From an uncultured Pseudomonadota bacterium (GTDB lineage: Bacteria; Pseudomonadota; Gammaproteobacteria; Burkholderiales; SG8-39): DNA of 64,000 nucleotides. Shown piece after piece: positions 876 through 49,289 of this stretch. The position numbers and the translations under genes are program-made. The stretch is taken from the NCBI GenBank assembly GCA_903829815.1, contig CAIKRR010000030.1, positions 25,730 to 89,729 on the forward strand. The letters are read 5' to 3'. The notes beneath the pieces are model-generated. The model was not told where the DNA came from, ran no database searches, and saw only the letters and a list, made by a program, of their open reading frames with translations. Within the stretch, counting starts at the first letter, position 1, and the number at the start of each line of letters is the position of its first letter.

Positions 876-1694
876 CTACTGACGCCAGTCGACCGGCTGG
901 CGAAAGCGCACCATCTCCATGCGTCGAACGACCGCATCGAACACGACCCGGGGCAGACTCCCGGCAGGGTCAAAGGCACTGGCATCGCGCCCCGACTGAC
1001 GCCGTACCGCTTCATCGAGAATGACATCGGCACCGCCCATGCCAAGTGCTGCAGCCTGGACTTCGCAGGCACGCTGCAAGGTCCAGTAGCGAAAGAATGC
1101 GTGCGGCAAACTGGTGCCGGTGACCAGCACCCCATGATTGCGAAGGACGAGCACATTGTGGCGCCCAAGGCTCGCCACCAGCCGCTCACGCTCATCACTG
1201 CGCACGGTGATGCCCTCGAAGTCGTGATAACCGACATCGCCCTGGAGGAGCGCCCCGTAGAAGTCATCATGACGCAGACCGGCACGCTTGCAGGCAACCG
1301 CCATCGCAGCCGTGGTGTGGGTATGGATCACGCACTGCGCGTCCTCGCGTGCCGAGTGGATGGCACCGTGAATGGCAAAGGCAGCCGGATTGCCACGCCA
1401 GGGACTTGTCGCGACGTTGACCCCATCGACCCCAACCTTGAGCAGATTCGATGCCGTCACCTCGCAGTAATTGAGCCCGAAAGGGTTCACCAGATAATGG
1501 TGCTCGGCACCGGGCACCCTGAGCGAGATGTGGTTGAAGATCGACTCGTGCCAGCCGAGAAAATCAAACACCTGGTAGCAGGCGGCCAGATCCAGGCGCA
1601 AGGACCACTCGTGCGGATCCATGCCGGCAGGCATGGTGACGGTTACAGCGTCGAGTGCCAGGGCACCGACGTTTTTCCGATCGACTGCATTCAT
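876..1694 (-). CDS. Class II aldolase/adducin family protein
   Basis: 272-aa ORF with the family pattern NHISLRVPG, His cluster CVIHTHT and LRNHGVLVTG. Its ATG overlaps the stop of the upstream ligase gene (ATGA at 1691-1694). Confidence 0.75.
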   Translation of the reverse strand: MNAVDRKNVGALALDAVTVTMPAGMDPHEWSLRLDLAACYQVFDFLGWHESIFNHISLRVPGAEHHYLVNPFGLNYCEVTASNLLKVGVDGVNVATSPWRGNPAAFAIHGAIHSAREDAQCVIHTHTTAAMAVACKRAGLRHDDFYGALLQGDVGYHDFEGITVRSDERERLVASLGRHNVLVLRNHGVLVTGTSLPHAFFRYWTLQRACEVQAAALGMGGADVILDEAVRRQSGRDASAFDPAGSLPRVVFDAVVRRMEMVRFRQPVDWRQ

Positions 1695-3262
1695 GTCAAT
1701 CCCCTCCCGATTTGTCGATCACCACCGGCCAGCAGACGCCGGACCTCGTCCTTTTGCACCTTGCCGAGCGCGTTCCTGGGCAACTGATCGACAAGCACCA
1801 CGCGGCGCGGATGCTTGTAGCGGGCAATGCGGTCGCGAAAGAGCGCGAGCACCATGGCTTCGTCAAGTGCGGGCAGCCCCGGCGCCGCTGCACAAGGCAC
1901 CACCACGGCCACCGCCACCTCACCCCAGCGCGGGTCAGGCATACCCACCACGGTGGCCTCCGCAATCACCGCACAAGCGGCCAGGATGTTCTCAAGCTCG
2001 GCCGGATAGATATTCTCGCCACCGCTGATGATCATGTCCTTCGAGCGGCCCACCACATGGTAGTAGCCCTCGTCATCAACACGAGCCAGGTCACCGCTGT
2101 GAAACCAGCCGTCGCGAAACGACGGATTGTCCGGATCTGCCCAGTAACCCTGCATGAGCGCAGGACTGCGCACCAGAATTTCGCCGACCTCACCACCTGC
2201 CACCTCATTGCCCAGCGCATCGACCAGTCGTACATCGACATGCAAGCCGACCTTGCCGGTGCTGCCGAGCTTGCGCAGCGCATCCTCGGGCTTCAGGTAG
2301 ATCGATACCGGTCCGGTCTCGGTCGAGCCATAGACCTGGGTGACCGCGACCCCTCGATCGATGAAGGCCTTCATCAAGGACTCGGGCACGGTAGAGGACC
2401 CGGTGTTGAGCATGCGCAGCGAACCGATATCGGTACTCATCCACTCGGGGTGCTCGATCACCGCCTTCAAGGTGGCAGGTACCAGCAGCGACACGCTGGG
2501 GCGCGACTGCCCGACCTCACGCAGCCAGGCAGCCGGATCGAAACGCGCATGTATCGTTACCGCAGCGCCGGCATGCAGCGCGGGCATCGTCTGGATACAC
2601 AGACCACCGACATGAAACATGGGCAGGGCCGAGAGCACATGGTCATCGCGGGTGAAGCCCTGGTAGTCGATCGCATTGATCGCGTTCCAGATCACCGCCT
2701 CGTGGGTATGTATCGCACCCTTGGGCAGACCCGTCGTGCCCGATGTGTAGACGATCATGACCGGGTCGGCACCACCACCCACGGATGCCACCGGCTCGGC
2801 ACCCGCTGCGGTCACCGCCTCCCAGCTCGCATCGGCATCGCCCGCGCCGACATTGCACGGGTCTGCCGAGGCCTCATCCATGAAGAGCACCGGGTACTGG
2901 CTGCCTGAGGCCAGCAGCGCATGCACGGTGTCGGCAAATCCGGCACCGGCCACCAGGCGACCCGCCGCCGAATGCGCAAGAATGGCGCGCAACTCAGGCA
3001 CGGCAAGCCGGAAATTGAGCGGCACAAACACCGCACCGAGCCGCGCCAGCGCGAGAAAGAGCACCAGCATCTCGGGATGGTTGTAGCCCAGATAGGCCAC
3101 ATGGTCGCCGCGCGCAACGCCGGCACGCTGTGCCAGGCCGGCGCTGGCCTGCTCGATGCGCTGCCATAGGGCGCTGTAAGTCATGCTCCGACCCTCGAAG
3201 CGCAATGCAGTCCGCTCGGGCTGAAACTGCGCATGCCGCTCGATGATGCGAGAAAGGCTCAT
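1691..3262 (-). CDS. AMP-dependent aryl/acyl-CoA ligase (adenylate-forming enzyme)
   Basis: 523-aa ORF with YTSGTTGLPKGA, GWFHSGDLA, SGGENIYPAELE and C-terminal LGKVQK signatures of the ANL superfamily. Confidence 0.85.
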   Translation of the reverse strand: MSLSRIIERHAQFQPERTALRFEGRSMTYSALWQRIEQASAGLAQRAGVARGDHVAYLGYNHPEMLVLFLALARLGAVFVPLNFRLAVPELRAILAHSAAGRLVAGAGFADTVHALLASGSQYPVLFMDEASADPCNVGAGDADASWEAVTAAGAEPVASVGGGADPVMIVYTSGTTGLPKGAIHTHEAVIWNAINAIDYQGFTRDDHVLSALPMFHVGGLCIQTMPALHAGAAVTIHARFDPAAWLREVGQSRPSVSLLVPATLKAVIEHPEWMSTDIGSLRMLNTGSSTVPESLMKAFIDRGVAVTQVYGSTETGPVSIYLKPEDALRKLGSTGKVGLHVDVRLVDALGNEVAGGEVGEILVRSPALMQGYWADPDNPSFRDGWFHSGDLARVDDEGYYHVVGRSKDMIISGGENIYPAELENILAACAVIAEATVVGMPDPRWGEVAVAVVVPCAAAPGLPALDEAMVLALFRDRIARYKHPRRVVLVDQLPRNALGKVQKDEVRRLLAGGDRQIGRGLT

Positions 3263-3289
3263 CGGCCATCGACCCCTGGCGTGCGATGA

Positions 3290-4579
3290 CTACTCATCGG
3301 TCTCGCCCGACTCGTACAAGGCCTCGCGCCCCATCCGATCCAGACACAGTTCGGCCGTCCAGGGCAGCATGAGCGACCCGCAACGGCTGTCGCGATAGAG
3401 CCGCTCGAGCGGCAGGGTCTTCAACATCGACTGCCCACCACAGGTGCGAATGGCCAACCGGCAGATATCGTTGGCGTTTTCCATCACCGTGTACTGGGTG
3501 GCATAAAGCCGCAAGCGTGCGTCCTTGGGCGGGTCGATTCGCGCTTCATGGATGGTGTGCAAAAAGAGCGCCCGGGTCTGCTCGAGCTTCACCCGCATCT
3601 CGGCCACCGCGATCTGCTTGGTGGGGTACATGCGCCGCTTCACCGGTGGCATGTCCGGCACTTCGCCGCGCAGATAGCGGATGGTGAAGTCGTATGCCGC
3701 CTGCGCGATACCCATATAGGTCGGCGCAAGCGTCATGAACATGTGCGGCCAGCGCGAGGCGGCCTGAAAGTAGACCCCACCTGGCATCAGCTGCTCGGCG
3801 TCAGCCACGTACACATCCTTGAACTGCAGGGTTCGCGAGACCGTACCACGCATGCCCAGCGGATCCCACTCACCCGAGATACTGACCCCGGGTGCATCGG
3901 CAGGCACCGCCACGTACATGGTGTCGCGCATGCCCGCACCGACCTTGTCCTCGGTGCACAGCACGCCGTAGAAGTTGGCTGCGCCCGAGAGCGACGCAAA
4001 TATCTTGCGTCCGTTGATCACCCAGCCGCCCTCAGCGCGTGTCGCGAGCGTGCCAAACGGTGCCTTGCCGGCGGCCGCTGCGCTACCCTCGGAAAAGGGC
4101 TGCGCATAGATGCTGCCCTGCTCGACCACGCGCGCGTAGTGCAGGGCTCGGCGTTCATGATGGAGGGCGCGGTCCTCGTCGCTCATGGTGAGGTCATCGG
4201 CCAGAGGTCCCGACCAGAGCTGCGAACAGGCATGCATGTTGAAGGTGAGCGCGGTGGCACCGCAATGACGACCGATCGTGGCAGCCACCATGCAATAGGT
4301 GGCGAAGTCAGCCCCGTGGCCCCCATGAGCCTTGGGCACGCACAGTCGCAAGAGGCCTGCGTCGCGCAGATCTGCGTAATTCTCGAACGGAAAACTCGCC
4401 TCGCGATCGTAGCGTTCGGCGCGGGCCGCAAAGCGCGTGCGACCGAGTTCATCGGCCAGCGCAATGAGAGCTGCCTGCTCGCTGGAGAGCGGGTAGCCCT
4501 CGCCGGTGATGGGGGGTGGCGTGTAGGTGCGCGGTTCACGCCGGACGGCTGGTGCGGGAGATGCAGATTCTGTTGACAT
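3290..4579 (-). CDS. Acyl-CoA dehydrogenase-fold flavoprotein (true ACAD or ACAD-type monooxygenase not distinguishable by eye)
   Basis: 429-aa ORF with ACAD-like organisation and the C-terminal pattern ERLYRDSRCG...WTAE. It lies 27 nt upstream of the ligase gene on the same strand. Confidence 0.7.
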   Translation of the reverse strand: MSTESASPAPAVRREPRTYTPPPITGEGYPLSSEQAALIALADELGRTRFAARAERYDREASFPFENYADLRDAGLLRLCVPKAHGGHGADFATYCMVAATIGRHCGATALTFNMHACSQLWSGPLADDLTMSDEDRALHHERRALHYARVVEQGSIYAQPFSEGSAAAAGKAPFGTLATRAEGGWVINGRKIFASLSGAANFYGVLCTEDKVGAGMRDTMYVAVPADAPGVSISGEWDPLGMRGTVSRTLQFKDVYVADAEQLMPGGVYFQAASRWPHMFMTLAPTYMGIAQAAYDFTIRYLRGEVPDMPPVKRRMYPTKQIAVAEMRVKLEQTRALFLHTIHEARIDPPKDARLRLYATQYTVMENANDICRLAIRTCGGQSMLKTLPLERLYRDSRCGSLMLPWTAELCLDRMGREALYESGETDE

Positions 4580-4603
4580 GATCGGCCTGGATTGAATGGG
4601 TCT

Positions 4604-5422
4604 TCAGTGACTTCCGATCGGGTCGACCGGAAAGTGGCGACCCAGAAAATCGAGCAGGATCGCATTGAACTGCGCCGGTTGTTCCATGCTGGCCAGATGG
4701 CCTGCGCCGGGCAGGCACACATACTCGGCACCACGGATTCGTGCTGCCATCTTGGACATGACCGAGGGCGGCGCATTGCCGTCCCGCTCACCGACCAGCG
4801 CAAGGGTCGGCACATCGATACGATCGAGGGCGGCGCGCTGATCAAAGCCCACCAGGGCATTGAGCGATGCACGATAGACCTCGGGGCGAAGCCGTCCCAT
4901 CGAGTCGGTGGCAATGGCTACACCGGCCGGATCGGGCGCATCACCCAGCATGGCCCGCACGAGCGAGGCGGCCAGTTCGGGCATGGTGCTCCCGGCATCA
5001 AGCCGCGCCAGACGAGCGCGCAGGAACTGCTGCTGCCAATCACCCTCGGGACGGCCAAAGGCCGGACTGGTGCCATAGAGCACGAGCCCCTGAACCCGTT
5101 CGGGCTCTGTCGCCATGACCTGCTGGGCCACCATGCCACCCATGCTGTGCCCCACCAGGACGGTACGCGCACTATCAAGGTGTCGCAGCAGGCGCGCGCA
5201 GGCGGCGGCAAGGCCTGCCATGTCGTAGGGATCGATCAGCGTACTGTCACCGTAGCCGGGCATGTCCCAGGCCGCAGCGCGATAGCCCTCGCGTGCAAGG
5301 GCCTCGAGTTGCCAGGGCCAGACGGTACGACCGCCACCCACACCATGCAGCAGCAGCACCAGCGTATCGCCCGATCCCGCTTCAGTCCATGCCGGCAATG
5401 CGCCTTGTATCGCAGCCGTCAT
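4604..5422 (-). CDS. Alpha/beta-fold hydrolase (possible thioesterase or NicD-like deformylase)
   Basis: I chose the internal ATG at 5420-5422 (MTAAIQG...), 1 nt after the stop of the upstream gene. The longer 336-aa ORF would overlap that gene. It carries the LLLHGVGGG oxyanion loop and the GHSMGG nucleophile elbow. Confidence 0.8.
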   Translation of the reverse strand: MTAAIQGALPAWTEAGSGDTLVLLLHGVGGGRTVWPWQLEALAREGYRAAAWDMPGYGDSTLIDPYDMAGLAAACARLLRHLDSARTVLVGHSMGGMVAQQVMATEPERVQGLVLYGTSPAFGRPEGDWQQQFLRARLARLDAGSTMPELAASLVRAMLGDAPDPAGVAIATDSMGRLRPEVYRASLNALVGFDQRAALDRIDVPTLALVGERDGNAPPSVMSKMAARIRGAEYVCLPGAGHLASMEQPAQFNAILLDFLGRHFPVDPIGSH

Positions 5423-5423
5423 C

Positions 5424-6479
5424 TCACGATTCCATCGACACGAGCACGCCCTCGTCGACCATGGTGCGGCCATCGAGTTCGACCGTGCAATTGCGCAGCG
5501 GCAGATCGAAGTGTCCCAGGGTATGGCGACCGGCAACCTCGTTGGCCCCGGTGGAGTAGAGGAAATTGCCGGCAAAGGCCCGCAGTTCGGTGCCATTGAA
5601 ATCACGGCGGTCATAGAAAGCCATGGCGTCCCAGCGCGCGGCCGGATTCATGCCCCACCCCACATGCGAGACTGCATAGGCTTCGGGCTCTCCCCAGGCG
5701 GCAAAATAACCCCGCATCATGTCGGCATCGAACCCTGCGCCGCTGATTTCGGTGACATAGTCGTTCTCGATCGTGAGATGAACCGCGTCGTGAATGAAAC
5801 GCTTGAAGGTGAGGTTGACATCCCCCGGGGCGAGGACGAGCCGGCCATTGACCGAGCCCGCCGCCGGAAAGGCGAGACACAGACCACCAGGCCAGTGCGC
5901 CACCGTGCCAGGCCGACTGGTGTAACCCCAGACACCACCGACGCGTGCACCTGCCAGACTCACCTCGAGTCGGGTACCTGCGGCCGAACTCACCCTCAGG
6001 GTGCTCGCATCGCGCAGCACGCGCATGGCAGCACGAACCTGCGGCTCGATGGCGTCATCGGGCATCAGGCGCTCGAGCGCCTCGGGATGCTCGTTGGAAA
6101 CCATCAGGAGACGCGCCCCGCCCTTGAGGATGGCGGGCAACTCGGTGGCATGCAGCAAGCCCTCGACGGTGAGATCAACCACCAGTACCGACTGCGCCAG
6201 TGCACCCACCACCGGCGCAAGGCCGCCCAGCGCATCGCTCGCGCCGGTGGACCGGACCGGCGCCGGTGCCTTCAATCGCGGGGATGGCACCACGAGGTGA
6301 AAGGGCCTGCAACCCAGCCGAAGCAGTGCCAGTTCAGCCAACTCGACATTGATGGGCCGCGACTGGGTCTCGGAAAGAATGGCTACGGCATCCCCCGCAC
6401 CCACACCGCACCGTGCGAATACTTCGGCAAAGCAGTCGATCCACTTGCCCTCGATCCGTTCACGCAGCATCTGCGTCAC
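5424..6479 (-). CDS. NicX-like (2,5-dihydroxypyridine 5,6-dioxygenase / aminopeptidase-T-fold) Fe(II) dioxygenase family protein, divergent paralogue
   Basis: 351 aa. It shares SHVGWGMNP, GNFLYSTGAN and GHFDLPLRNCTVELDG blocks with the paralogue at 9016-10065 and with P. putida NicX as I recall it. Confidence 0.6.
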   Translation of the reverse strand: MTQMLRERIEGKWIDCFAEVFARCGVGAGDAVAILSETQSRPINVELAELALLRLGCRPFHLVVPSPRLKAPAPVRSTGASDALGGLAPVVGALAQSVLVVDLTVEGLLHATELPAILKGGARLLMVSNEHPEALERLMPDDAIEPQVRAAMRVLRDASTLRVSSAAGTRLEVSLAGARVGGVWGYTSRPGTVAHWPGGLCLAFPAAGSVNGRLVLAPGDVNLTFKRFIHDAVHLTIENDYVTEISGAGFDADMMRGYFAAWGEPEAYAVSHVGWGMNPAARWDAMAFYDRRDFNGTELRAFAGNFLYSTGANEVAGRHTLGHFDLPLRNCTVELDGRTMVDEGVLVSMES

Positions 6480-6600
6480 CTCCTTCAGAGCCTGCCCTTG
6501 CCTTGAGCCCGGCAGTCATGCGGGCATGCGGCCCCTGCCATCGAAACAGCGCCGTGCGAAGCACCGCGCTCGCACCCGGATACAACCACCGCGTCGCATT

Positions 6601-7395
6601 TTACTTGCGCACACCGGGCGTCTCGATCGCGACACCCTGCGCACGCCAGGCAAGAAACAGTTCAAGGTCCAGATACTCGGGGGCGCCATAGGGCCACATC
6701 TCGGCGCGCACGCCCGACAGGCAACTGCGAAAGCGTCGATGCAGCGATCCGGCCTTCTGCCACTCGAGTCTGTAGATGGGATAGGCATTGGGATGCCCCT
6801 GGCTGATGGTTTCGGCGAGCAACTGGCGCCCCCAGTTCTGCTCATGGCAGTGGTTGCACGCAAGATTCATCTGGCCCATGCGCCGGTAGTAGAGAGCACG
6901 GCCAGCGTCAAAGTGCGCGCGCGCTTCAGCATCGATGGACACACCGATCGGCACGCCGCGCGACCACGACCCGACGTAGGCAGCAATGCCGATCGCCTCA
7001 TCAGACTCGGGGGTGAACGCTGCCAACCCCTGCTTGCCGACCCGGCAGGCGTCGATCCGACCAGCCAGGTTCACCAGGCGCCCGAGCGCGGTATCGATGC
7101 GCGGATAGCGCGCCGCGACACCCTTCATCGATTGCGCGGCGTCACCATGGCAAGTAGCGCAGGCCTGTTGCGAGCGCCCGGCAGGCGCGGCCCACAGCGC
7201 CGCCCCGCGGTCGAGCCACAGCTGCGCGGGGTTGGCAAACTCGTCGGCCTGCATCGCGCGCACCGATGCGGGTTGAAACGAAAGGCCCGAACGCAGGGCA
7301 TCGAGCGCGATGACGCGCTCCTGGGCAGGTGCCATCGGCGCGGCAGCCAGGACGGTCACCGCCAGGACAAGCTGTTGCACGACGGCGCGCATCAA
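6601..7395 (-). CDS. soxA: Diheme c-type cytochrome SoxA-like (L-cysteine S-thiosulfotransferase subunit family)
   Basis: 264 aa with a signal peptide. Two CxxCH motifs (CATCH, CNHCH) and candidate Cys heme-ligand contexts RIDACR and RRFRSCLSG are present. The C-terminal ...ETPGVRK is SoxA-like. Its ATG overlaps the soxX stop (7392-7395). Confidence 0.7.
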   Translation of the reverse strand: MMRAVVQQLVLAVTVLAAAPMAPAQERVIALDALRSGLSFQPASVRAMQADEFANPAQLWLDRGAALWAAPAGRSQQACATCHGDAAQSMKGVAARYPRIDTALGRLVNLAGRIDACRVGKQGLAAFTPESDEAIGIAAYVGSWSRGVPIGVSIDAEARAHFDAGRALYYRRMGQMNLACNHCHEQNWGRQLLAETISQGHPNAYPIYRLEWQKAGSLHRRFRSCLSGVRAEMWPYGAPEYLDLELFLAWRAQGVAIETPGVRK

Positions 7396-7904
7396 CGCAG
7401 CGTCCCGAGATAGGCGACCACATCCTCGATCGCCTGCGCGTCAAGGACGGGCCGGCCAGCAAACGCCGCGGCCACCCGCACACGACCCTCGGCGCGATAG
7501 TAGGCCGGCATGATGCTCTCGGGCACGACCAGGCTCGAGTCAACCATGCGCAGCCGCAACTGCCCCTCGCTCAAACGGGCCCCTGCGCCATCGATCGGCG
7601 GGCCCAGATTGCCCATCGAACGCGCGTTGCCGCCCGGCACCTGATGACAGAGTGTGCAGTTGGACTCGCGCGAAAAGACGACCTCGCGCCCTCGGGTGGC
7701 ATCGCCGCGCAGATCGGCCAACGGCCTGTCGATGGCACCTGCCACGACCTGGAGTCCGGCCAGGACCTGGGCAGCGGCGCCAGAAGCCGATGGCGCGGGG
7801 CGTGGCTGGGCCACCACGACCTGTGCAAAAGAGGCCTGCGCGGTCATCGCCGCAGCAACAACGCAGCCGATGAGGGCAGACAGACCGGCCGCCGCCCTGT
7901 GCAT
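7392..7904 (-). CDS. soxX: Monoheme c-type cytochrome SoxX-like
   Basis: The start at ATG 7902-7904 (MHRAAAGLSALIG..., signal peptide) lies 2 nt after the stop of the Bug gene. There is a single CTLCH heme motif. It is tightly coupled to the SoxA-like gene. Confidence 0.6.
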   Translation of the reverse strand: MHRAAAGLSALIGCVVAAAMTAQASFAQVVVAQPRPAPSASGAAAQVLAGLQVVAGAIDRPLADLRGDATRGREVVFSRESNCTLCHQVPGGNARSMGNLGPPIDGAGARLSEGQLRLRMVDSSLVVPESIMPAYYRAEGRVRVAAAFAGRPVLDAQAIEDVVAYLGTLR

Positions 7905-7906
7905 CG

Positions 7907-8896
7907 CTACTCGGCGCGCGCGCCCGAGGCCTTGACTGCACGCCCCCATTGCTCGACCTCTCTTGCGATGAACGTTGCAAACTCGGCGGGCGTGTCGGCC
8001 ATGGGATCGAGCCCCTGCGCAGCCAGCGTCGCACGTGCCTCGGGGCTTGCGAGTGCCCGTCGTACTTCGGCGTTCAGTCGGTTGACGATATCGACCGGCG
8101 TACCAGCCGGCGCAACCAGACCGCTCCAGAATGCGATCTCGAACTGTGGCAACCCGGCTTCGACGATATCGGGGACATCGGGGTATTGCGGACTGCGCTC
8201 GCGGGAAGTCACCAGCAGAGCCCGCAGCTTGCCTGCCCGAATGTGCGGACCCAGATTGGCGAAACTCTCGAACACCATCTGGACCTGCCCGGCCAGCAGG
8301 TCTGCAACCGCCGGGCCACCCCCCTTGTAGGGAACGTGGACGATATCGGTAGCCGTGATCGTCTTGAAGAGTTCACCGGCCAGATGCAGCGGCGTGCCGC
8401 TGCCGGCAGAGGCAAAGTTGAGCTTGCCAGGCCGTGCACGGGCGAGATCGATCAGCTCGCGCACGGTCTTCGCAGGCACCGCTGGATTGACCGCCAGCAC
8501 GAGCGGCCCGATCGATACCAGACTCACCGGGGCGAACGAGGTGCGGGGGTCGTAGGCAAGACGAGGATAGATGCTCGGCGCAATGCCCAGTGTGCTGGTG
8601 CTGCCATAGAGCAGGGTATAGCCATCAGGCAGGGCGCGCGCTGCCGCCTCCGAGCCGACCGTGCCACCTGCCCCTGCGCGATTGTCGATCACGACCTGCT
8701 GACCCAGACCCTCGGAGAGCTTCTGTGCCACCAGACGCCCGACGATGTCGGTCGGTCCACCGGGCGGAAAGGGCACGATGAGACGCAAGGCCCGTGAGGG
8801 AAAGACCTCGGCCGCAGGGGCAGCCGCCGATGACAGGGCAATCATCGCGCTGAGGACAGCAAGGAAACACAGGGAGGTCGATCGCATGAATATCAT
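7907..8896 (-). CDS. Bug/TctC-family tripartite tricarboxylate transporter substrate-binding protein
   Basis: 329 aa with a signal peptide. Family blocks are LIVPFPPGGPTD, VVIDNRAGAGG, PDGYTLL, HVPYKGGGPA..DLLAGQV and W.GL.AP.GTP. Confidence 0.85.
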   Translation of the reverse strand: MIFMRSTSLCFLAVLSAMIALSSAAAPAAEVFPSRALRLIVPFPPGGPTDIVGRLVAQKLSEGLGQQVVIDNRAGAGGTVGSEAAARALPDGYTLLYGSTSTLGIAPSIYPRLAYDPRTSFAPVSLVSIGPLVLAVNPAVPAKTVRELIDLARARPGKLNFASAGSGTPLHLAGELFKTITATDIVHVPYKGGGPAVADLLAGQVQMVFESFANLGPHIRAGKLRALLVTSRERSPQYPDVPDIVEAGLPQFEIAFWSGLVAPAGTPVDIVNRLNAEVRRALASPEARATLAAQGLDPMADTPAEFATFIAREVEQWGRAVKASGARAE

Positions 8897-9015
8897 TGCC
8901 GGCTGACGGGACCAGAGCCTGATGACCCAGGACCAGTGTGCAGTATATAGTGCCCTTTTCGCTGCCGAACCCGGAGTCCTGCGCGATGCTGCCTGCTCAC
9001 TTCCAGTCTACCGAG

Positions 9016-10065
9016 ATGAATCCGGCCCGCCTGCCCGGTCTTTTCCGCCAGCAATTCGAGATGTCGGCCGTGAAGAAGGGAGAAACCATTGCGGTGGTCT
9101 CCGACCTGGGGACCCGGCGCGAGTACGTGCAGGCCTCGTTCGCCGCCGCTGACGACCTGGGTGCCGACATCTACGAGATGTGCGTCAACTCGATCCCTTC
9201 CTGGACCAAGGTGGGGGTGCCGACCATCGGGCAGTGCAAGGGCACGCTCGAGGCGCTTTGCCAGGTCGATCTCATCGTCATCTTCCATGTGCCGCTCTTT
9301 GCAAGCTGGCTGCGCGCCGTGATGCAGCGCGGCGTGCGAGTGCTGATGATCATCGACGCGCCCGATGACCTCGAGCAACTGATGTCGCCACCCGGATTGA
9401 AAGAAGCCCTCAAGTACGCCAACGCACTCTACAAGGCCACGCGCCAGGTGCGGGTGACCAGCCGTGCCGGTACCGACTTCACCTACGATTGCGGCGAATA
9501 CCCGACGATGATCCAGTGGGGCTACGCCGATGAGCCCGGGCACTTCGATCACTGGGGTGCGGGCCACATCCACACCTTTCCGAACGAAGGCAGCGCCAGC
9601 GGTACCGTCGTGATCTCACCCGGTGACATCGTGATCCTGCCCTACTGCCGCTACGTGCAGGACCCGATCAGGCTCGAGGTGCGCGAGGGCCATGTCGTAT
9701 CGATCGAGGGCGGACTTGACGCAAAGCTGATGCGCGACTGGCTCGAGGATGGCAAGGTCGACGAGCATGATCGCGACCCCTACGCGCTGTCGCATCTGGG
9801 CTGGGGCATGAACCCGCAGGCGCGCTGGAACTGGCTCGGGCTGACCGGTGGTGAACCCGAACGCAACCGTGCTGCGGCGCGCGTCTTCCCGGGCAACTTC
9901 CTTTTCAGTACCGGCCCCAACACCCAAGGCGGTGGCAAGCGCACCACCCGTGGCCATTACGATGTGCCGATGCGCGATTGCACCGTAGCACTCGACGGAC
10001 GCGTGGTGATCAATGAAGGCCGCATCGTCGATGAACGCATGCGCGTGGCTCGCGTACGACGCTGA
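9016..10065 (+). CDS. 2,5-dihydroxypyridine 5,6-dioxygenase-like protein (NicX family)
   Basis: It closely resembles NicX as I recall it: ADEPGHFDHW, NFLFSTGPNTQGGGKRTT, SHLGWGMNP and GHYDVPMRDC (H-x-D). The start is ambiguous. ATG 9016 fits homologue length, ATG 8986 has a GGAG upstream, and the ORF opens at 8938. Confidence 0.7.
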   Translation: MNPARLPGLFRQQFEMSAVKKGETIAVVSDLGTRREYVQASFAAADDLGADIYEMCVNSIPSWTKVGVPTIGQCKGTLEALCQVDLIVIFHVPLFASWLRAVMQRGVRVLMIIDAPDDLEQLMSPPGLKEALKYANALYKATRQVRVTSRAGTDFTYDCGEYPTMIQWGYADEPGHFDHWGAGHIHTFPNEGSASGTVVISPGDIVILPYCRYVQDPIRLEVREGHVVSIEGGLDAKLMRDWLEDGKVDEHDRDPYALSHLGWGMNPQARWNWLGLTGGEPERNRAAARVFPGNFLFSTGPNTQGGGKRTTRGHYDVPMRDCTVALDGRVVINEGRIVDERMRVARVRR

Positions 10066-10092
10066 GCGCACCGTCCTGACCAGGAATCCCAC

Positions 10093-11130
10093 ATGACCTT
10101 GACCGATGACGCCGATCGCCCCGATCGCGCACTGATCGACGCCCTCGAGGCGTCGAATTACCACCCGCTGTGGACCCGCTACCGGGCTATCACGCCGGTG
10201 AAACCAGCAGCACGCGACAATCCACGGCTTTGGCGCTGGCGCGATTTCGAACCCTTCGTCGAGCGGGCCGCACGCGAAGTACCAATTGAAGATATCGAGC
10301 GACGTGCCATCATCCTGGCGCACCCTGCGTTTGGCGGTGCCACCGTCACCACCGCCAACCTGATCGCAGCGTTCACCGTTCTCGAGCCGGGCGACCATGC
10401 AGTCCCGCATCGGCACACCACGGCGGCGATACGTTTTGGCACGCGGGCCGAGGGCGCGGTCACCCTGGTGAACGGCCGTCGCTGCGCCATGAATGCGGGC
10501 GACCTGGTGCTCACACCGCCCATGTGCTGGCATGGCCACATCAACGAAGGCCGCGAGCGAACCGTCTGGTTCGATGCCGCCAACATCCCCTTCATTTGCG
10601 GCCTCGATGCCAACTTCTTCGAGCCCGGCAGCCGCAGCGACACTGCCTTCTGGGATGTCGATGAAGGCGACGAGCGACTCTACAAGGCAAGCGGCCTGCA
10701 GGTGCTGCGCGACGAACCCCATGGCCTGCAAGGCCACTCACCCAAGTTCCACTATCCCGGCGAAGTGACCCGGCGCCTGCTCGATGCCATGCCGCGCGCA
10801 GCCGATGGCCAGCGCAGCCTGCGCTACACCAACCCCGACACCGGCGGCCCGGTGATGGCCACCCTGGACTGCCAGTACACCCGGCTCGCAGGCGGTGAGG
10901 CGACGCGTGCACGGCGCGCCACCCACAATGCCGTGTGCCTGGTGGTGTCAGGCGAGGGGCATTCGCAGATAGGGGCAGAACGCATCGAATGGCAGCAGCA
11001 CGATGTATTCACCGTGCCGCACTGGACGCTCGCCTCCCACACCGCTCGATCGGCCGAGGCCGACCTGTTCATCGTGTCCGACCGACCGGTGTTCGAAGCA
11101 CTGGGCTTGCTGCGGGTCGAGTTCGAGTAG
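10093..11130 (+). CDS. Gentisate 1,2-dioxygenase-family bicupin dioxygenase
   Basis: 345 aa. GDO-type block: HAVPHRHTTAAIRF...GDLVLTPPMCWHGHINEG...VWFDAANIPFICGLDANFFE. It starts 28 nt after the NicX-like gene. Confidence 0.75.
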   Translation: MTLTDDADRPDRALIDALEASNYHPLWTRYRAITPVKPAARDNPRLWRWRDFEPFVERAAREVPIEDIERRAIILAHPAFGGATVTTANLIAAFTVLEPGDHAVPHRHTTAAIRFGTRAEGAVTLVNGRRCAMNAGDLVLTPPMCWHGHINEGRERTVWFDAANIPFICGLDANFFEPGSRSDTAFWDVDEGDERLYKASGLQVLRDEPHGLQGHSPKFHYPGEVTRRLLDAMPRAADGQRSLRYTNPDTGGPVMATLDCQYTRLAGGEATRARRATHNAVCLVVSGEGHSQIGAERIEWQQHDVFTVPHWTLASHTARSAEADLFIVSDRPVFEALGLLRVEFE

Positions 11131-11141
11131 CCCCCGACCGA

Positions 11142-13412
11142 TCAACGCCGGCGACTCAGGGCGTAGGCCTGATCGCGACCCGCAAGATACGCGCGCGGCC
11201 AGGACACGTTGCTGGACCCTGCTTCAGCAGCCGCATGCAGGGTGAAGTACGGGTCTGCCAGATGCGGTCGGGCAAGGGCGCACAGATCGGCACGGCCGGC
11301 AGCGAGCAGCGTGTTGACCTGATCGATGCTGGTGATTGCACCCACTGCCATCGTCGCGATGCCGGTCTCGAGCCGGATCTGCTCGGCAAATCCCGCCTGA
11401 TACATGCGGCCGTAGACCGGGCGCGAGGCCGGGTCGGTCTGCCCGGTCGACACATCGACGAGGTCGCAGCCGTGTGCCTTGAGCATGCGGGCAATCTGCA
11501 CTGAATCGTCGCCAGTGATGCCGCCTGGCATCCAGTCGGTCGCCGAGATGCGGGCAGCCATTGGCCGCTCGGCAGGCCACAGGGCACGACAGGCATCGAA
11601 GATCTCGAGCGGAAAACGCATGCGCGCCTCGAGCGACCCGCCGTACTCATCGGTGCGCTTGTTGGTCACTGGCGAGATGAACGTGGCCAGCAGATAACCA
11701 TGGGCCATGTGCACCTCGATCATGTCGAAGCCGGCGTCGATGGCCATTTGGGTCGCGCGTTCGAAGTCGGCGCGTACCCGATCCATGTCGGCGCGGGTCA
11801 TCGCTGCGGGAACCTGCGATTCACCCGGCTTGTAGGGCAGCGGCGACGGCGCGAGCAAGGGCCAGTTGGCCTCGGGCAAGGGGCTGTCGATCGACTCCCA
11901 ACCCAGTTGGGTCGAGCCCTTGCGCCCCGCATGCCCCAGTTGCAGGCACAGTCGCGCGGCGCTCTGGGCATGCGCAAAGTCGCTTATCCGACGCCATGCC
12001 GCCACGTGCTCGGGGGTGTAGATACCGGCGCAGCCCGGGGTGATGCGGGCCTGGGCAGAAACAGCCGTCATCTCGGTGTAGACCAGGCCGGCACCGCCAA
12101 TGGCACGCGAGCCGTAATGCACCAGATGCCAGTCGCCAGCCACACCGTCAGTGGCCGAGTACTGGCACATCGGCGACACCACCACCCGGTTGGCCAATTG
12201 CAGGTCGCGCAAGCGCAAGGGGGCAAGAAAGGGCGGCGCCTTGAACCCGCTTGGCAGCACGATGCCCTGTTGCGCGGCCACGCTGCGGTTCCACCACTGT
12301 TCGACCTCGGCAACCACGCCAGGGTCGCGCAGACGCAGGTTCTCCCAGGTGATCTGCTTGGAGCGTGACAGCAGCGAGAAATTGAACTGCACCGGGTCCA
12401 TCGCCCAGTACCGTTCCATGTGTTCGAACCAGCCCAGACTGGTATCGGCCGAGTGCTGGATCTTCTCGACTTCGGGCCGCCGCGCCACCTCGTAGTTGGC
12501 CAGGGCGCGCGGCAGGTTGTCGGGCGATTCGCTCACCGCCTTGTGCAGCGCGATCACATCTTCCATCGCAAGCTTGGTGCCCGAGCCGATCGAGAAGTGG
12601 GCGGTATGCGCGGCATCACCGACCAGCACGGTGTTCTCGTGGCTCCAGTGTTCACAGTGGATGTTCGGAAAGTTTCGCCAATGCGAGCGATTGACCAGCA
12701 GACGGTGACCGCGCAGTTCCTCGGCAAACAGGCGCTCGCAATAGCGAGCCGTGGCTTGCTCATCGGTTACAGCGAGCCCCGAACGACGGAAGGTCTCGTC
12801 ACTGGTCTCGAGAATCACGGTGCACTGGCCACGCGTGAACTGGTACGCGTGAATGGCCCACAACCCGGCTTCATCCTCCTTGAAGGCAAACGTGAAGCCG
12901 GGCAGCGGCGTTTCGGCACCCAGCCAACAGAACTTGTTGGGGCGCATCTCGATCACCGGCCGGAAATGCGCCTTCCAGGCCTCGCGCACCGGGCTGTTGA
13001 CCCCGTCGGCCGCCACCACCAGGTCGGCATCGCGATGACTCTCGATGCCCGGGTCACGGGTCTGGTAGCGGATGTCCACGCCCAGGCTCGCCGCACGACG
13101 CTGCAGGATCTCGAGCAAGGTCAGACGCTTCAGGCCGGAAAAGCCATGCCCCGAGGAGCGCAGAACCTGCCCCTTGAAGTGGGTGTAGATGTCGTCCCAG
13201 TAGGCAAAATTGGCCGCGATCTCGGCATGACTCTCCTCATCGGCCAGTTGCAGGCGACCCAGCGTCTCGTCGGAGAGCACGATGCCGAAGCCGAACGTGT
13301 CGTCGGGCTTGTTCTGCTCGAACACGGTGACCTTGGCCTGGGGTATCGACTTGCTCACCAGTATCGAGAAATAGAGCCCCGCGGGCCCACCACCAATGAC
13401 ATCGATCTTCAT
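11142..13412 (-). CDS. Bifunctional aryl-CoA hydroxylase/reductase (N-terminal FAD monooxygenase fused to C-terminal Old-Yellow-Enzyme NADH:flavin oxidoreductase; salicylyl-CoA 5-hydroxylase / 2-aminobenzoyl-CoA monooxygenase-reductase type)
   Basis: The start ATG 13410-13412 ([14 protein letters not shown], dinucleotide-binding motif) is preceded by AAGGAG. The C-terminal half has an OYE pattern ([10 protein letters not shown]..., [11 protein letters not shown]). About 756 aa. Confidence 0.8.
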
Positions 13413-13508
13413 GTTCGAACTCCTTGCGCCAGCATGCTGCAGCCCTTGATCGCTCAAGTCAGCCCGAGGTGCAATGCCCGGAGGGCAGGCGCAGGCGACT
13501 GCCTGATC

Positions 13509-13537
13509 AATATAATTTACCGTGTATATTACGTCAA
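13509..13537 (-). promoter_or_regulatory. Putative sigma70 promoter of the hydroxylase gene (-35 TTGACG, 17-nt spacer, -10 TATATT) overlapped by the inverted repeat AATATA-N10-TATATT
   Basis: Read on the minus strand: TTGACG (13537-13532), 17 nt, TATATT (13514-13509). This is the most AT-rich stretch of the marR/hydroxylase divergent intergenic region. The inverted-repeat arms are at 13509-13514 and 13525-13530. Confidence 0.5.
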
Positions 13538-13561
13538 TAATTCCATCGATTCGAGACGACC

Positions 13562-14092
13562 ATGAGTCAGAGCCAAGTCGAACGCGTCCCCCCGCATCTG
13601 GCGGCATCCGCCGAGGAACTGACGGTGACTGACTTCGAGCAGTCGCTCATCTGTGCAGCCGAGGCGTTCTACCGCTGCATCGGCTTGCTGCTCGGGCCAG
13701 CGGCGCGCGAGCACCGGCTCTCGGGCGAGGACAACGTGATCCTGCAGCAACTCATGGCCTCACCCCACCCGCGCAACCTGACCGATCTCGCACGATTTGC
13801 CAATCGCGACGACACAGCCAACATCCAGTACAGCCTGCGCAAGCTGATCACGGCGCAACTGGTCGAGAAGGCTCCGGGGTCGACCAATCGCGATTCACGC
13901 TATCAGGTCACCGCCCGCGGTCGAGCCCTCACCGAAGAATTTCTGGCGCGCCGCCGCGCACTGGTGATGGAGCCCGCGCGTCAGATGCGCGATGCCGATA
14001 CCCACTTGCAGGCAGCGATTCGCGCTCTCAACATGATGGCTGGCATCTATGATCAGGGCACGCGAAGCATCACCGCCCGCGAAGATCGCTGA
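13562..14092 (+). CDS. MarR-family winged-helix transcriptional regulator
   Basis: 176 aa with a wHTH-like segment ([31 protein letters not shown]...[11 protein letters not shown]). It is divergent from the hydroxylase gene. Confidence 0.7.
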
Positions 14093-16879: not shown

Positions 16880-16882
16880 CCC

Positions 16883-24812: not shown

Positions 24813-24878
24813 TCTCGTCGGCATCCTCGAACCATGGGCAATCGCCATCCGGACAGGCAACCGTCCTCGCTCCCGATT

Positions 24879-28962: not shown

Positions 28963-29169
28963 CTGTGAGTGTCTCCTCGTGAATCAGGGGTTCGCGGGGC
29001 TCGTGCCCACCTGCGGCGCAGTGTCATGGCGAGGCGACGGCTTGTCAAGGCAGCGGCGTCGCAAGAGCTGTCCCGCAACGGCGGCGTCAATGCTAGGATC
29101 GCGCGCTTCGGCAGGCCGGGGCACGCAAGGCTCGGGCGAGTGCCAGGCCAGTCAAGCAGGGGAGACACG

Positions 29170-30000: not shown

Positions 30001-30040
30001 CCCTCAGGGCCGTCCCGGCACAGCGATCAGAGAGAGCACG

Positions 30041-37861: not shown

Positions 37862-38011
37862 GGTCTCTCCCAGGTCAACGATGTGGGTCTGGCGTCGTAT
37901 CCAGCGTGCACGGTGCAGCGGCACAGCCTGATCCCGTCGGGATTATAGGTGGCGGCGAAGGCAAAGCGGCTAGAATCGAGCGAGGTGCCGCATGCCCCAG
38001 GAGGAGTGACG

Positions 38012-49272: not shown

Positions 49273-49289
49273 GACAACTCCAGAACCAT

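Follow-up and report, generated by a model that had tools for sequence, protein, structure and literature searches.

The locus examined here lies in a stretch of 64,000 nucleotides (the window, meaning all of the DNA analysed) from an uncultured freshwater Burkholderiales genome, and raises the question of whether a fused aryl-CoA hydroxylase, a CoA ligase and several ring-cleavage dioxygenases make up one pathway or several. Open reading frames, Pfam and NCBIfam place all 11 genes of the locus and support their family assignments, and PDB matches also agree with the family-level calls of an earlier sequence-only reading, whose phrase of two para-diol dioxygenase families is correct as a description of families only. 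The minus-strand run (876–8896) comprises the eight co-directional genes that had been proposed, spaced by −4, 27, 24, 1, 130, −1 and −43 nt from the aldolase-fold gene to the Bug gene, and its sole gap longer than 30 nt is that between NicX1 and SoxA. The opposite-strand pair of NicX-like and bicupin genes was also observed, with NicX2 starting at 8986 and not at 9016 as first given, and the convergent fusion gene of about 756 codons (11142–13412) is confirmed, with a divergent MarR-like HTH_27 gene starting at 13562. Literature searches brought up no published account of a pathway that combines these genes. An sdg-like CoA route is one pathway, whereas the locus here consists of several separately conserved modules, apparently for aromatic or nitrogen-ring acids; with about even confidence, it may be described as a chromosomal, lineage-specific mosaic in which several catabolic modules, each conserved independently, serve the breakdown of an ortho-substituted aromatic or N-heteroaromatic carboxylate, and the earlier interpretation is only partly supported because such a mosaic is not one sdg-like CoA route.

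Three metagenome lineages that are related yet distinct (L093, L094 and L095) share the complete arrangement, with NicX2 identities of 86–93% in L093 and L094 and a NicX1 identity of 90% in L095, and it is therefore more than chance. The mosaic was found in one clade only, and because of this confinement it could also represent simple accretion of unrelated modules. The reading as a mosaic of catabolic modules draws on the conservation of the separate parts, among them module A (876–6470), whose core of NicX1, alpha/beta hydrolase, ACAD-fold protein and CoA ligase is conserved in most of 80 genomes. Where enough flanking sequence is available, the ACAD-fold gene comes after NicX1 in 60 of 65 loci, the hydrolase gene in 57 of 65 and the ligase gene, which lies beyond the ACAD-fold gene, in 39 of 49. 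A flavin reductase gene directly precedes NicX1 in 49 of 78 loci, and a MarR gene is divergent from it in 37 of 73. The NicX-like/ACAD-fold/hydrolase triad was also observed on Ensifer and Aminobacter plasmids (54%, 50–52% and 33% identity, respectively), accompanied by 'flavin reductase family protein' genes, and a natural in-frame hydrolase–ACAD fusion exists in L094 and also in P0242 (9 member sequences). Neighbours of module A in some genomes offer hints about its substrate, namely a FAH-family hydrolase, encoded both on the Aminobacter plasmid and in L180, and beta-oxidation genes in Polaromonas. Most module A copies have no fusion hydroxylase nearby, and the ligase, ACAD-fold protein and hydrolase belong to this separate conserved NicX1 module. 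The 130-nt gap between NicX1 and SoxA (6471–6600, minus strand) has a promoter-like site, a weak, consensus-only sigma-70-like match (6626–6598, 9 of 12 positions) located mostly inside the soxA 3' end, and a separate NicX1-to-aldolase transcript could possibly start here. A hint at anthranilate comes from a single genome, that of Pandoraea terrae, where kynB, kynU and a tryptophan 2,3-dioxygenase gene, which jointly yield this compound, run in the same direction as the module A MarR gene.

The ACAD-fold flavoprotein of module A (429 aa; 3290–4579, minus strand) matches all three ACAD domains weakly, and no NCBIfam model approaches its cutoff. It is without the catalytic Glu of the YEGT motif, carries a family-specific insertion and is 50–52% identical to the products of the ACAD-family genes beside NicX-like and flavin reductase genes on the Ensifer and Aminobacter plasmids. 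Since a flavin reductase gene usually lies just upstream of module A, the protein probably serves as the oxygenase in a two-component flavin monooxygenase system rather than as an acyl-CoA dehydrogenase; the C-terminal Glu is also missing from two ordinary-looking ACAD-family neighbours, so its loss alone is no proof of an oxygenase. No flavin reductase of the type seen at other loci occurs within the window, and an ACAD-fold oxygenase would therefore need a reductase encoded elsewhere. The alpha/beta-fold hydrolase (272 aa; 4604–5422, minus strand; Abhydrolase_1 and Abhydrolase_6) was called as an ORF of 4604–5614 that overlaps NicX1, its real start being 5422; it shows sub-threshold NCBIfam matches to PcaD and BioH and could be an esterase, a thioesterase or a C–C hydrolase. 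Its candidacy as a NicD ortholog was rejected, with BLASTP E values of 3e-4 to NdpF and 0.05 to NicD, two N-formylmaleamate deformylases that are 57% identical to one another.

The AMP-forming acyl/aryl-CoA ligase (523 aa; 1691–3262, minus strand; AMP-binding and AMP-binding_C) has its start at 3262 supported by the AMP-binding domain, whose match to the long ORF starts at residue 8, and by a tblastn alignment reaching 3250. Its best PDB matches are feruloyl-CoA synthetase/fatty-acyl-CoA synthase (8wev, 8weu; 1e-108), with benzoate-CoA ligases at about 1e-42 only, and by this measure it is feruloyl/fatty-acyl-like, with no substrate assignable from sequence. Its identity to the ligase of a Paracoccus cluster, whose gene set we take to resemble abm, is only 28%. 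The class II aldolase/adducin-fold protein (272 aa; 876–1694, minus strand; Pfam Aldolase_II 3e-42) falls into the NCBIfam PRK07044 subfamily (301 bits against a cutoff of 207), with 3ocr as its best PDB match and weaker matches to the decarboxylases NovR and 2z7b ('Mlr6791 protein'), the latter presumably a pyridine-dicarboxylate decarboxylase. Its gene is the last of the minus-strand run, occupies the same position in L093–L095 and L181, and is missing from most module A loci; the product may be an aldolase or a decarboxylase, with either a ring-fission product or an aromatic acid as its substrate.

Module D comprises the fusion enzyme, a MarR-like regulator, an IlvD-like dehydratase and a Liv-type transporter. 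The FAD-monooxygenase/OYE fusion (756 aa; 11142–13412, minus strand; FAD_binding_3 and Oxidored_FMN), convergent to the NicX2/bicupin pair and preceded by the ribosome-binding site AAGGAG, reaches 1111.8 bits against a cutoff of 1078 for NCBIfam NF006101 (bifunctional salicylyl-CoA 5-hydroxylase/oxidoreductase). The suggested kinship to salicylyl-CoA 5-hydroxylase thus held, and by its family match the enzyme is an aryl-CoA 5-hydroxylase/reductase of the SdgC/2-aminobenzoyl-CoA monooxygenase-reductase family. Annotated homologs from Paracoccus, Ruegeria and Ralstonia share 52–54% identity with it; the contexts in Paracoccus and Ralstonia include MarR, ECH and thioesterase genes and are presumably abm-like. 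In 9 of the 48 other loci whose flanks are long enough, a homolog (60–66% identity) is encoded no more than 10 kb from the NicX1 module, a recurrence that backs the link proposed earlier between fusion and NicX1 arm and makes a functional connection with module A plausible. Counting against it, the fusion stands beside module A with no ligase within 10 kb at three loci (L009, L016 and L084). An AT-rich divergent promoter region (13413–13561) separates the fusion gene from the MarR-like gene, with a promoter-like TTGACG-17-TATATT on the minus strand (13537–13509) and no clear inverted repeat. The MarR-like winged-helix regulator (176 aa; 13562–14092, plus strand; Pfam HTH_27 6e-8) is kept beside the fusion in L093 and differs from the MarR type that is divergent from NicX1 in other genomes. 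It is followed by the IlvD/EDD-family dehydratase (572 aa; 14160–15878, plus strand; ILVD_EDD domains), which barely passes TIGR00110 (626 against 618), has orthologs (75–77% identity) adjoining the fusion in L013, L016 and L084, and is possibly a pathway paralog rather than housekeeping IlvD. Downstream of it lie the genes of the Liv-type ABC transporter (15959–19415, plus strand), with two permeases and two ATPases (BPD_transp_2 twice, ABC_tran, BCA_ABC_TP_C); the fusion hydroxylase cluster of Paracoccus denitrificans is likewise flanked by a branched-chain-type ABC transporter.

A single CoA-dependent gentisate route, in which ligase, hydroxylase, thioesterase and gentisate dioxygenase act together, does not survive the evidence from module C (8986–11130), the pairing of NicX2 with a GDO-like bicupin dioxygenase (345 aa; 10093–11130, plus strand; Cupin_2). 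The best PDB matches of the bicupin are deposited as gentisate 1,2-dioxygenase (3nst, 2phd, 2d40 and 3bu7; E 8e-55 to 2e-50), 3nst and 2phd being presumably the salicylate 1,2-dioxygenase of Pseudaminobacter salicylatoxidans. As a gentisate 1,2-dioxygenase equivalog the bicupin was rejected, with 225.6 bits against a TIGR02272 cutoff of 442.1, and the 5-aminosalicylate dioxygenase model gave 197 against a cutoff of 650. Near its homologs (60–71% identity) the fusion hydroxylase was present in 0 of 30 loci. The next gene downstream encodes a molybdenum hydroxylase large subunit in 32 of 42 loci, and 10 of 26 have NicX2 on the upstream side; the NicX2–bicupin pairing recurs in a minority of other loci. 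NicX2 homologs at 78–81% identity occur in operons with three-subunit XDH-type molybdenum hydroxylases, and module C may represent a reduced version of a widespread N-heterocycle module, the usual form of which includes a molybdenum hydroxylase.

The textbook substrate of NicX is 2,5-dihydroxypyridine. NicX1 (348 aa; 5424–6470, minus strand; ribosome-binding site AGGAGG ahead of its ATG at 6470) and NicX2 (359 aa; 8986–10065, plus strand), NicX-family Fe(II) dioxygenases of two non-canonical subfamilies, both match the solved NicX structure (PDB 7cn3) at 8e-58 and 2e-65, respectively. NicX1 is 32–37% identical to canonical NicX, NdpE and Caballeronia NicX, and NicX2 is 35–36% identical to the canonical enzymes and 34% to NicX1. 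All members of both subfamilies (120 each) retain the Fe ligands, and NicX1 keeps H265, S302, H318, D320, L104, H105, H189 and R293. At the E177 position, 117 of the 120 NicX1 members have Val and the other 3 have Gly, while in NicX2 all 120 members have Gln at this position and Phe in place of H105. In NicX, Glu177 reads the N–H of the pyridone ring, the residue roles being those given in PMC7910607. Orthology of either protein to 2,5-dihydroxypyridine dioxygenase was rejected on identity (35–37%), replacement of Glu177 and the absence of NicD, NicF and NicE; both are members of large subfamilies, as yet uncharacterised, for which this compound is probably not the substrate.

Gene content, modularity, conserved partners, active-site differences and scores against family cutoffs are direct observations. 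For the proposed mosaic of catabolic modules, we infer the substrates, the order of steps, any cross-talk between modules and the oxygenase role of the ACAD-fold protein; module A would work as a unit of hydroxylation, cleavage, hydrolysis and activation. The ACAD-fold protein, pairing as oxygenase with a flavin reductase, would supply a para-hydroxylated ring, which NicX1, having lost the Glu that reads the pyridone N–H, would then open, and the fission product would be processed by the hydrolase and the aldolase-fold protein. The ligase may form a CoA ester, either an aryl-CoA for the fusion hydroxylase or a fission product entering beta-oxidation. The fusion of module D would para-hydroxylate an aryl-CoA, such as anthraniloyl-CoA or salicylyl-CoA, and this module may be a second supply route to the para-substituted intermediate; the best guess for the substrate is an anthranilate- or salicylate-type acid.

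The remaining three genes of the minus-strand run encode periplasmic proteins outside the proposed catabolic steps. The Bug/TctC solute-binding protein (329 aa; 7907–8896, minus strand; Pfam TctC 4e-76), which has a normal signal peptide when read from 8896, is a probable uptake receptor for a carboxylate, and its nearest structures, namely 2dvz ('putative exported protein'), a terephthalate-binding protein and Bug27, are none of them diagnostic. The SoxX-type monohaem cytochrome c (185 aa; 7392–7949, minus strand) scores 70.8 bits against a TIGR04485 cutoff of 61, has one CxxCH motif and is 55% identical to the SoxX of L181. The periplasmic SoxA-type dihaem c-type cytochrome (263 aa; 6601–7392, minus strand; TIGR04484 216.9 bits against a cutoff of 110) exhibits a signal peptide, two CxxCH motifs and Cys224, and shares 67% identity with its L181 counterpart, a member of a soxXYZA set.

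A minus-strand run was observed at the locus, comprising genes for a class II aldolase-fold protein (876–1694), an AMP-forming CoA ligase (1691–3262), an ACAD-fold protein (3290–4579), an alpha/beta hydrolase (4604–5422), the NicX-like dioxygenase NicX1 (5424–6470), SoxA (6601–7392), SoxX (7392–7949) and a Bug/TctC receptor (7907–8896), with successive gaps of −4, 27, 24, 1, 130, −1 and −43 nt. The second NicX-like dioxygenase, NicX2 (8986–10065), and a GDO-like bicupin (10093–11130, recognised from Cupin/GDO-family matches) lie on the plus strand, and convergent to this pair is the minus-strand gene of a 756-aa FAD-monooxygenase/OYE fusion (11142–13412). A plus-strand MarR-like gene (13562–14092) is divergent from the fusion, with an IlvD-like dehydratase and then a Liv-type ABC transporter downstream. 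No convincing operator-like inverted repeat was found in the three intergenic regions. According to the ORF list, Pfam and NCBIfam, every gene named in the sequence-only reading is present and was given the right family. The G+C content of the window is 62–70%, and its closest relatives are uncultured Burkholderiales. The whole arrangement, with ftsY flanking, recurs in three related metagenome lineages (L093, L094 and L095), indicating a stable chromosomal locus and no chance juxtaposition. In L094, an inserted BrnT/CopG-type toxin–antitoxin pair (9175–9739) separates the Bug gene from NicX2. The preferred reading is a mosaic, specific to this lineage, in which conserved modules are combined. 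The sequence-only reading is partly supported: the family given to the fusion held, and a link of the fusion to the NicX1 operon has recurrence behind it, whereas the single sdg-like CoA-dependent gentisate route with nicotinate genes added did not hold. What stands out at the locus are two NicX subfamilies, both uncharacterised, whose substrate-reading residues are altered and whose conserved partners differ; one of them recurrently meets an aryl-CoA 5-hydroxylase.

NicX1 and NicX2 matched PDB entry 7cn3 with E values of 8e-58 (residues 14–346) and 2e-65 (residues 13–351), respectively, and both carry the precomputed Pfam label PF26233 (NicX); the family assignment rests on this PDB search and this label, as the scans with the Pfam copy and NCBIfam returned no match for either protein. 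The Fe ligands of NicX are His265, Ser302, His318 and Asp320, while Leu104, His105, Glu177 and His189 recognise dihydroxypyridine, Glu177 forming hydrogen bonds with the ring N1-H and O1 (PMC7910607). The sole substrate reported for NicX is 2,5-dihydroxypyridine, the specificity being put down to His105, Glu177 and His189, and an H105F mutant was reported to be active (PMC7910607). The active sites were aligned with those of P. putida NicX, NdpE and a Caballeronia NicX, and each subfamily was surveyed over the 120 best-scoring proteins per search, out of thousands of database matches each. All four Fe ligands are kept in NicX1, in NicX2 and in the best 120/120 of each subfamily, and Leu104, His189 and Arg293 are likewise conserved in both, with the exception of a single Gln at position 189 among the best 120 NicX2-type proteins. 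Position 105 is His in NicX1 and Phe in NicX2-type proteins, Phe also being present in the canonical NdpE. Within the substrate-reading network of His105, Glu177 and His189, Glu177 is absent from NicX1 and NicX2 and His189 is retained in both; among the best 120 of each subfamily, position 177 of the NicX1-type proteins is occupied by Val (117) or Gly (3) and never by Glu, and that of the NicX2-type proteins by Gln (120/120). The canonical, NicX1-type and NicX2-type clades are about equidistant, with identities of 30–38%. The locus points to two abundant NicX subfamilies in which Glu177 is systematically replaced, each with its own conserved partners.

The nicX-nicD-nicF-nicE cluster of P. putida KT2440 and ndpEFGH of Sphingobium share with the window the full-length NicX fold, the four Fe ligands, L104, H189 and R293, and, as in the nic clusters, an alpha/beta hydrolase follows NicX1. 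On the other hand, NicX1 and NicX2 are only 32–37% identical to the nic/ndp enzymes, Glu177 is replaced by Val/Gly or Gln, and the hydrolase beside NicX1 is unrelated to NicD/NdpF beyond the fold (E 3e-4 against NdpF and 0.05 against NicD). Maleamate amidase and maleate isomerase were not found in the window, neither an isochorismatase-type amidase nor an Asp/Glu-racemase-type isomerase being present among the window ORFs scanned. The canonical nic route (NicX with NicD) was ruled out because the hydrolase has no meaningful NdpF/NicD similarity and Glu177 is missing.

When gentisate is overlaid on dihydroxypyridine, the N1-H position turns into a C-H, with the 5-OH still directed at His189, so that, by our own reasoning and not as a result, a small hydrophobic residue at position 177 would suit a carbocyclic para-substituted ring. 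It is put forward, as a tentative and rather unlikely proposal, that the NicX1-type proteins may form a large unrecognised NicX branch cleaving a carbocyclic para-substituted ring and not a pyridone, the ring coming from an ACAD-fold two-component hydroxylase or from the aryl-CoA 5-hydroxylase fusion; candidate substrates would be gentisate or gentisyl-CoA, 5-hydroxyanthranilate or its CoA ester, or a hydroquinone. If true, anthranilate or salicylate would have a new oxygenolytic lower pathway, found widely among Burkholderiales of freshwater and soil and on Rhizobiales plasmids, and a family described as dihydroxypyridine-specific would gain its first substrate other than dihydroxypyridine. 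Should the substrates differ from dihydroxypyridine, the chemistry of a poorly explored ring-cleavage family would be extended, and automatic labels such as "2,5-dihydroxypyridine 5,6-dioxygenase" and "acyl-CoA dehydrogenase", which are probably wrong, would be corrected.

The genes of NicX1, the hydrolase, the ACAD-fold protein and the ligase constitute a recurrent module, hereafter module A (876–6470, here with the aldolase-fold gene), which was surveyed by a NicX1 scan with one genome per species, followed by tblastn and de novo clustering on 80 loci. Among loci with sufficient flanking sequence, the ACAD-fold gene comes after NicX1 in 60/65, the hydrolase in 57/65 and the ligase in 39/49. 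A gene of 170–180 aa, which its sequence motifs suggest to be a flavin reductase, lies directly upstream of NicX1 in 49/78, and a divergent MarR gene stands on the upstream side in 37/73. Cultured carriers of module A include Polaromonas sp. AER18D-145, AET17H-212 and SM01, P. eurypsychrophila CGMCC 1.15322 and Pandoraea terrae LMG 30175. In the window, tblastn detected neither the flavin reductase nor a MarR gene of the module A type. The ACAD-fold protein is matched by the three ACAD domains (N-terminal, middle and C-terminal) at E values of 1e-11 to 1e-15, carries a family-specific insertion of about 25 residues and reaches no NCBIfam cutoff, the best score being 125.7 against 600; its weak matches mix true ACADs with ACAD-fold oxygenases and desulfinases. 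Its C-terminal motif region reads LMLPWTAEL, so that the Glu of (Y/I)EG(T/A), the one base position considered, is absent. From the gene context, the protein would be the oxygenase of a two-component flavin monooxygenase making the substrate of NicX1, a proposal that is weakened because the window holds no such reductase. The ACAD fold is shared with DszC, HsaA and p-hydroxyphenylacetate hydroxylase C2, and, in line with these enzymes, the dehydrogenase Glu is missing and a flavin reductase accompanies most orthologous operons; it differs from them in that its matches fall far below the family cutoffs, in the insertion and in having no adjacent reductase in the lineage of the window. To our knowledge, a conserved pairing of an ACAD-fold protein with a NicX-family enzyme is undescribed. 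The ligase is nearest to feruloyl/fatty-acyl-CoA synthetases and could serve an aromatic acid or an unsaturated fission product.

Variants of module A were also observed. An in-frame fusion of the hydrolase and the ACAD-fold protein, 738–739 aa in length, is present in L094 (2016–4232, minus strand) and in the cluster-representative protein P0242, which stands for nine member sequences and shows Pfam matches to both halves; such a natural fusion argues that the two proteins act together. A distant version is located on Ensifer adhaerens plasmid p1 (L088, 10001–17729) and Aminobacter aminovorans plasmid pAA02 (L089, 6263–18376), with a NicX-like gene (54% identity; annotated "peptidase M29"), an ACAD-family gene (50–52%) and an alpha/beta hydrolase (33%). 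In place of the CoA ligase there are a flavin reductase, a TetR regulator, an APC permease and a glutamine-synthetase-like gene, the last hinting at an amine substrate processed through gamma-glutamylation. On the Aminobacter plasmid, this set is immediately preceded by a cupin, an FAH-family hydrolase and a C-N hydrolase. A second context of the NicX1-type dioxygenase subfamily is found in four further comparison loci (L007:10007–12313, L017:9950–12347, L008 and L014), in which a NicX1-type gene 76–81% identical to that of the window is followed by a different ACAD-family gene, which has YAGTNE at the C-terminal motif and stands where the hydrolase/ACAD-fold pair would be, with Bug receptors nearby.

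The fusion hydroxylase carries FAD_binding_3 (176–383) and Oxidored_FMN (462–792) domains in the numbering of an 821-aa ORF, the real protein being 756 aa. It narrowly passes NCBIfam model NF006101 (1111.8 bits against a cutoff of 1078, model positions 1–755 of 768), a model that does not separate salicylyl-CoA from 2-aminobenzoyl-CoA activity, and it shares 52–54% identity with the annotated Paracoccus, Ruegeria and Ralstonia homologs. The same identity range applies to abm of Azoarcus evansii and the clusters of Paracoccus denitrificans PD1222 and Ralstonia solanacearum, the last two of which we take to be abm-like, and in which, as here, a MarR-type regulator and a branched-chain-type ABC transporter stand beside the fusion. 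The P. denitrificans cluster comprises SDR, MarR, enoyl-CoA hydratase, ACAD, thioesterase, RidA, ligase and ABC transporter genes, part of which is annotated in the Ralstonia record. Of this set, the SDR, ECH, canonical ACAD, hotdog thioesterase, RidA and ligase are missing from the window and none is orthologous to window genes; in contrast to the Paracoccus and Ralstonia clusters, the fusion of the window adjoins no hotdog thioesterase, ECH or RidA, and the ring opening would be oxygenolytic (NicX- or GDO-type) and not beta-oxidation-like as with abm. The ACAD-fold gene and the ligase were considered as orthologs of the ACAD and ligase of the Paracoccus cluster and were ruled out at 25% and 28% identity, respectively. 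The sole ligase near the fusion is the feruloyl/fatty-acyl-like one of module A, about 8 kb away. Fusion homologs of 60–66% identity are located within 10 kb of module A in 9/48 loci, where the NicX1 identities are 69–80%, and in several loci the fusion lies directly against the MarR/flavin-reductase side of the NicX1 operon. It is chiefly this recurrence that supports a functional link of aryl-CoA 5-hydroxylation to NicX1-type cleavage, and it offers a concrete candidate for the opening of 5-hydroxylated anthranilate or salicylate derivatives.

The IlvD/EDD-family dehydratase (14160–15878), which is barely above the ilvD equivalog cutoff and may be a pathway paralog rather than a housekeeping IlvD, adjoins the fusion also in L013, L016 (the same locus as L086) and L084, and some of these lineages add an NAD_binding_2-type dehydrogenase, taken as HIBADH-like, and an enoyl-CoA hydratase. 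In L094 (12147–14466), the fusion is called as two ORFs of 473 aa (the OYE part) and 284 aa, representing either gene decay or an assembly error.

The hints on substrates are all circumstantial. In Pandoraea terrae LMG 30175 (L076:5762–9900), genes for tryptophan 2,3-dioxygenase, kynureninase and kynurenine formamidase, three enzymes that together lead to anthranilate, run in the same direction as the MarR gene of module A and diverge from a flavin reductase-NicX1-hydrolase-ACAD-ligase operon, as seen in this one genome only, which provides a circumstantial anthranilate link to the abm-like clusters. On the Aminobacter plasmid and in L180, module A has FAH-family hydrolases beside it, which fit a 2,4-diketo-acid fission product, and in Polaromonas the ligase is followed by FadB, thiolase and ACAD genes, a beta-oxidation-type set that fits CoA activation of an aliphatic product. 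A 5-hydroxyanthranilate route has been described in Nocardia opaca and a 2-aminobenzoyl-CoA route in Azoarcus evansii (PMC4539516), and Arthrobacter sp. Rue61a, when grown on anthranilate, was found to contain a CoA ester that is presumably hydroxyanthraniloyl-CoA (PMC3534580). No paper on this gene set or its modules came up in the literature searched, whose coverage omits most subscription journals; the topics included salicylyl-CoA together with dihydroxypyridine, NicX alongside an ACAD or a flavin reductase, 5-hydroxyanthranilate cleavage and gentisyl-CoA.

It is quite possible, if on balance not our preference, that the modules are functionally unrelated neighbours within one catabolic island, each with a different substrate: module A would act on a phenolic or heteroaromatic compound, the NicX2/bicupin pair on an N-heterocycle supplied by a molybdenum enzyme elsewhere, the fusion with its MarR, IlvD-like and transporter genes on anthraniloyl- or salicylyl-CoA, and the sox genes on sulfur compounds. 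Each module is indeed widely found without the others, and separate promoter-like sites stand upstream of NicX1, NicX2 and the fusion gene. The window is also dense in other catabolic genes (23535–51141), with at least eight Bug/TctC receptors, a LigXa-like Rieske oxygenase (23535–24860), an ECH and canonical ACAD pair (28969–31192), an amidohydrolase_2 protein (33090–34049), an FAH-family hydrolase (36929–37924), a Rieske dioxygenase alpha subunit (37949–39337) and an XDH-type molybdenum hydroxylase (46834–50728). However, the contact of the fusion with module A is far more frequent than we would expect for a gene assumed to be near single-copy, lineages 7–14% apart at the protein level have kept the mosaic, even past the toxin–antitoxin insertion of L094, and soxXA or soxXYZA also accompanies an aldolase-bearing module A in the independent lineage L181.

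The bicupin matched about equally four PDB entries deposited under the name gentisate 1,2-dioxygenase (3nst, 2phd, 2d40 and 3bu7; E 8e-55 to 2e-50), and scored 225.6 bits against TIGR02272, below the cutoff of 442.1, and 197.4 against the 5-aminosalicylate dioxygenase model, whose cutoff is 650. Its homologs of 60–71% identity were collected in a metagenome scan and their neighbours clustered (L100–L179). A large subunit of a molybdenum hydroxylase (about 790 aa) lies immediately downstream of the bicupin homologs in 32/42 loci and a NicX2-type gene upstream in 10/26, the fusion hydroxylase being near them in 0/30; an upstream ABC transporter is probably of the ribose type from the reading of cluster representatives. 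Similarly, NicX2 homologs at 78–81% identity are located in operons with three-subunit XDH-type molybdenum hydroxylases, alpha/beta hydrolases and transporters. The XDH-type enzyme of the window lies 35 kb off and is 33.7% identical to the usual bicupin partner. Given these subfamily partners and the sub-cutoff bicupin, the NicX2/bicupin pair looks like the remnant of an N-heterocycle module from which the adjacent molybdenum hydroxylase was lost. The bicupin/molybdenum hydroxylase module itself occurs in soil and freshwater metagenomes, such as L137:8557–13328 and L148:5508–13374, and we know of no characterisation of it.

These partners also bear on the single CoA-dependent route of the earlier proposal, in which the ligase, the fusion as 5-hydroxylase and the hydrolase as thioesterase would release a free para-diol, the GDO-like protein cleaving carbocycles (gentisate) and the NicX-like proteins pyridines (2,5-dihydroxypyridine), and which we consider improbable. 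In its favour, the fusion passes its NCBIfam cutoff, the families named are the right ones for the GDO-like protein and both NicX-like proteins, the genes are tightly packed and kept together in L093–L095, no ligase other than that of module A is near the fusion, and an SdgC homolog was reported to be salicylate-induced in Massilia, a Burkholderiales genus (PMC13215587). Nevertheless, the GDO-like protein does not reach the GDO equivalog cutoff and its conserved partners are the molybdenum hydroxylase and NicX2 and never the fusion; neither maleylpyruvate isomerase nor fumarylpyruvate hydrolase is in the cluster, the nearest FAH of the window being that at 36929–37924; both NicX-like proteins are without Glu177, and NicD, NicF and NicE are not in the cluster; most genomes pair the hydrolase, ACAD-fold gene and ligase with NicX1 and have no fusion there; and the route gives the ACAD-fold protein no role. 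The clusters sdgABCD (Streptomyces sp. WA46) and cehGHI (Rhizobium sp. X9) share with the window a fusion of the same NCBIfam family and the neighbourhood of a CoA ligase, a hydrolase and a GDO-family bicupin, but the bicupin of the window is not a GDO equivalog and is partnered elsewhere with the molybdenum hydroxylase and NicX2, the ligase is feruloyl/fatty-acyl-like and of neither the salicyl-AMP nor the benzoate type, and the hydrolase has an alpha/beta fold and travels with NicX1. The sdg and ceh gene sets are not known to include a NicX-family enzyme, an ACAD-fold oxygenase or SoxXA.

The mosaic of conserved modules, as the preferred reading, also includes SoxXA and the Bug receptor inside the catabolic run (6601–8896). 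SoxA scored 216.9 against a cutoff of 110 (TIGR04484) and has two CxxCH motifs and Cys224, and SoxX scored 70.8 against 61 (TIGR04485) and has one CxxCH; soxYZ and soxB were not detected among the window ORFs scanned, and the nearest solved structure of the Bug receptor is not diagnostic of a substrate. A route for an organosulfur acid, in which the ligase would form the CoA ester, the ACAD-fold protein would act as a desulfinase or sulfur oxygenase (3-sulfinopropionyl-CoA desulfinase, DszC/SfnB-type) and SoxXA would handle the released oxidised sulfur, is highly improbable: the sub-threshold NCBIfam matches of the ACAD-fold protein include 3-sulfinopropanoyl-CoA desulfinase, SfnB and DszC, its PDB matches include DszC and 5af7 (a 3-sulfinopropionyl-CoA desulfinase listed as "acyl-CoA dehydrogenase"), and sox genes adjoin module A in two lineages, but these matches are far below the cutoffs (70–126 bits against 430–850), soxYZB was not found in the window, and most module A loci are without sox genes and instead have a flavin reductase and a NicX-family ring-cleavage enzyme. 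SoxXA is conserved across the L093–L095 clade, and in the independent lineage L181 (1357–3453) soxX-soxY-soxZ-soxA lies about 5 kb upstream of a NicX1-hydrolase-ACAD-ligase-aldolase operon, both sox-linked lineages being without the flavin reductase at its usual site just upstream of NicX1.
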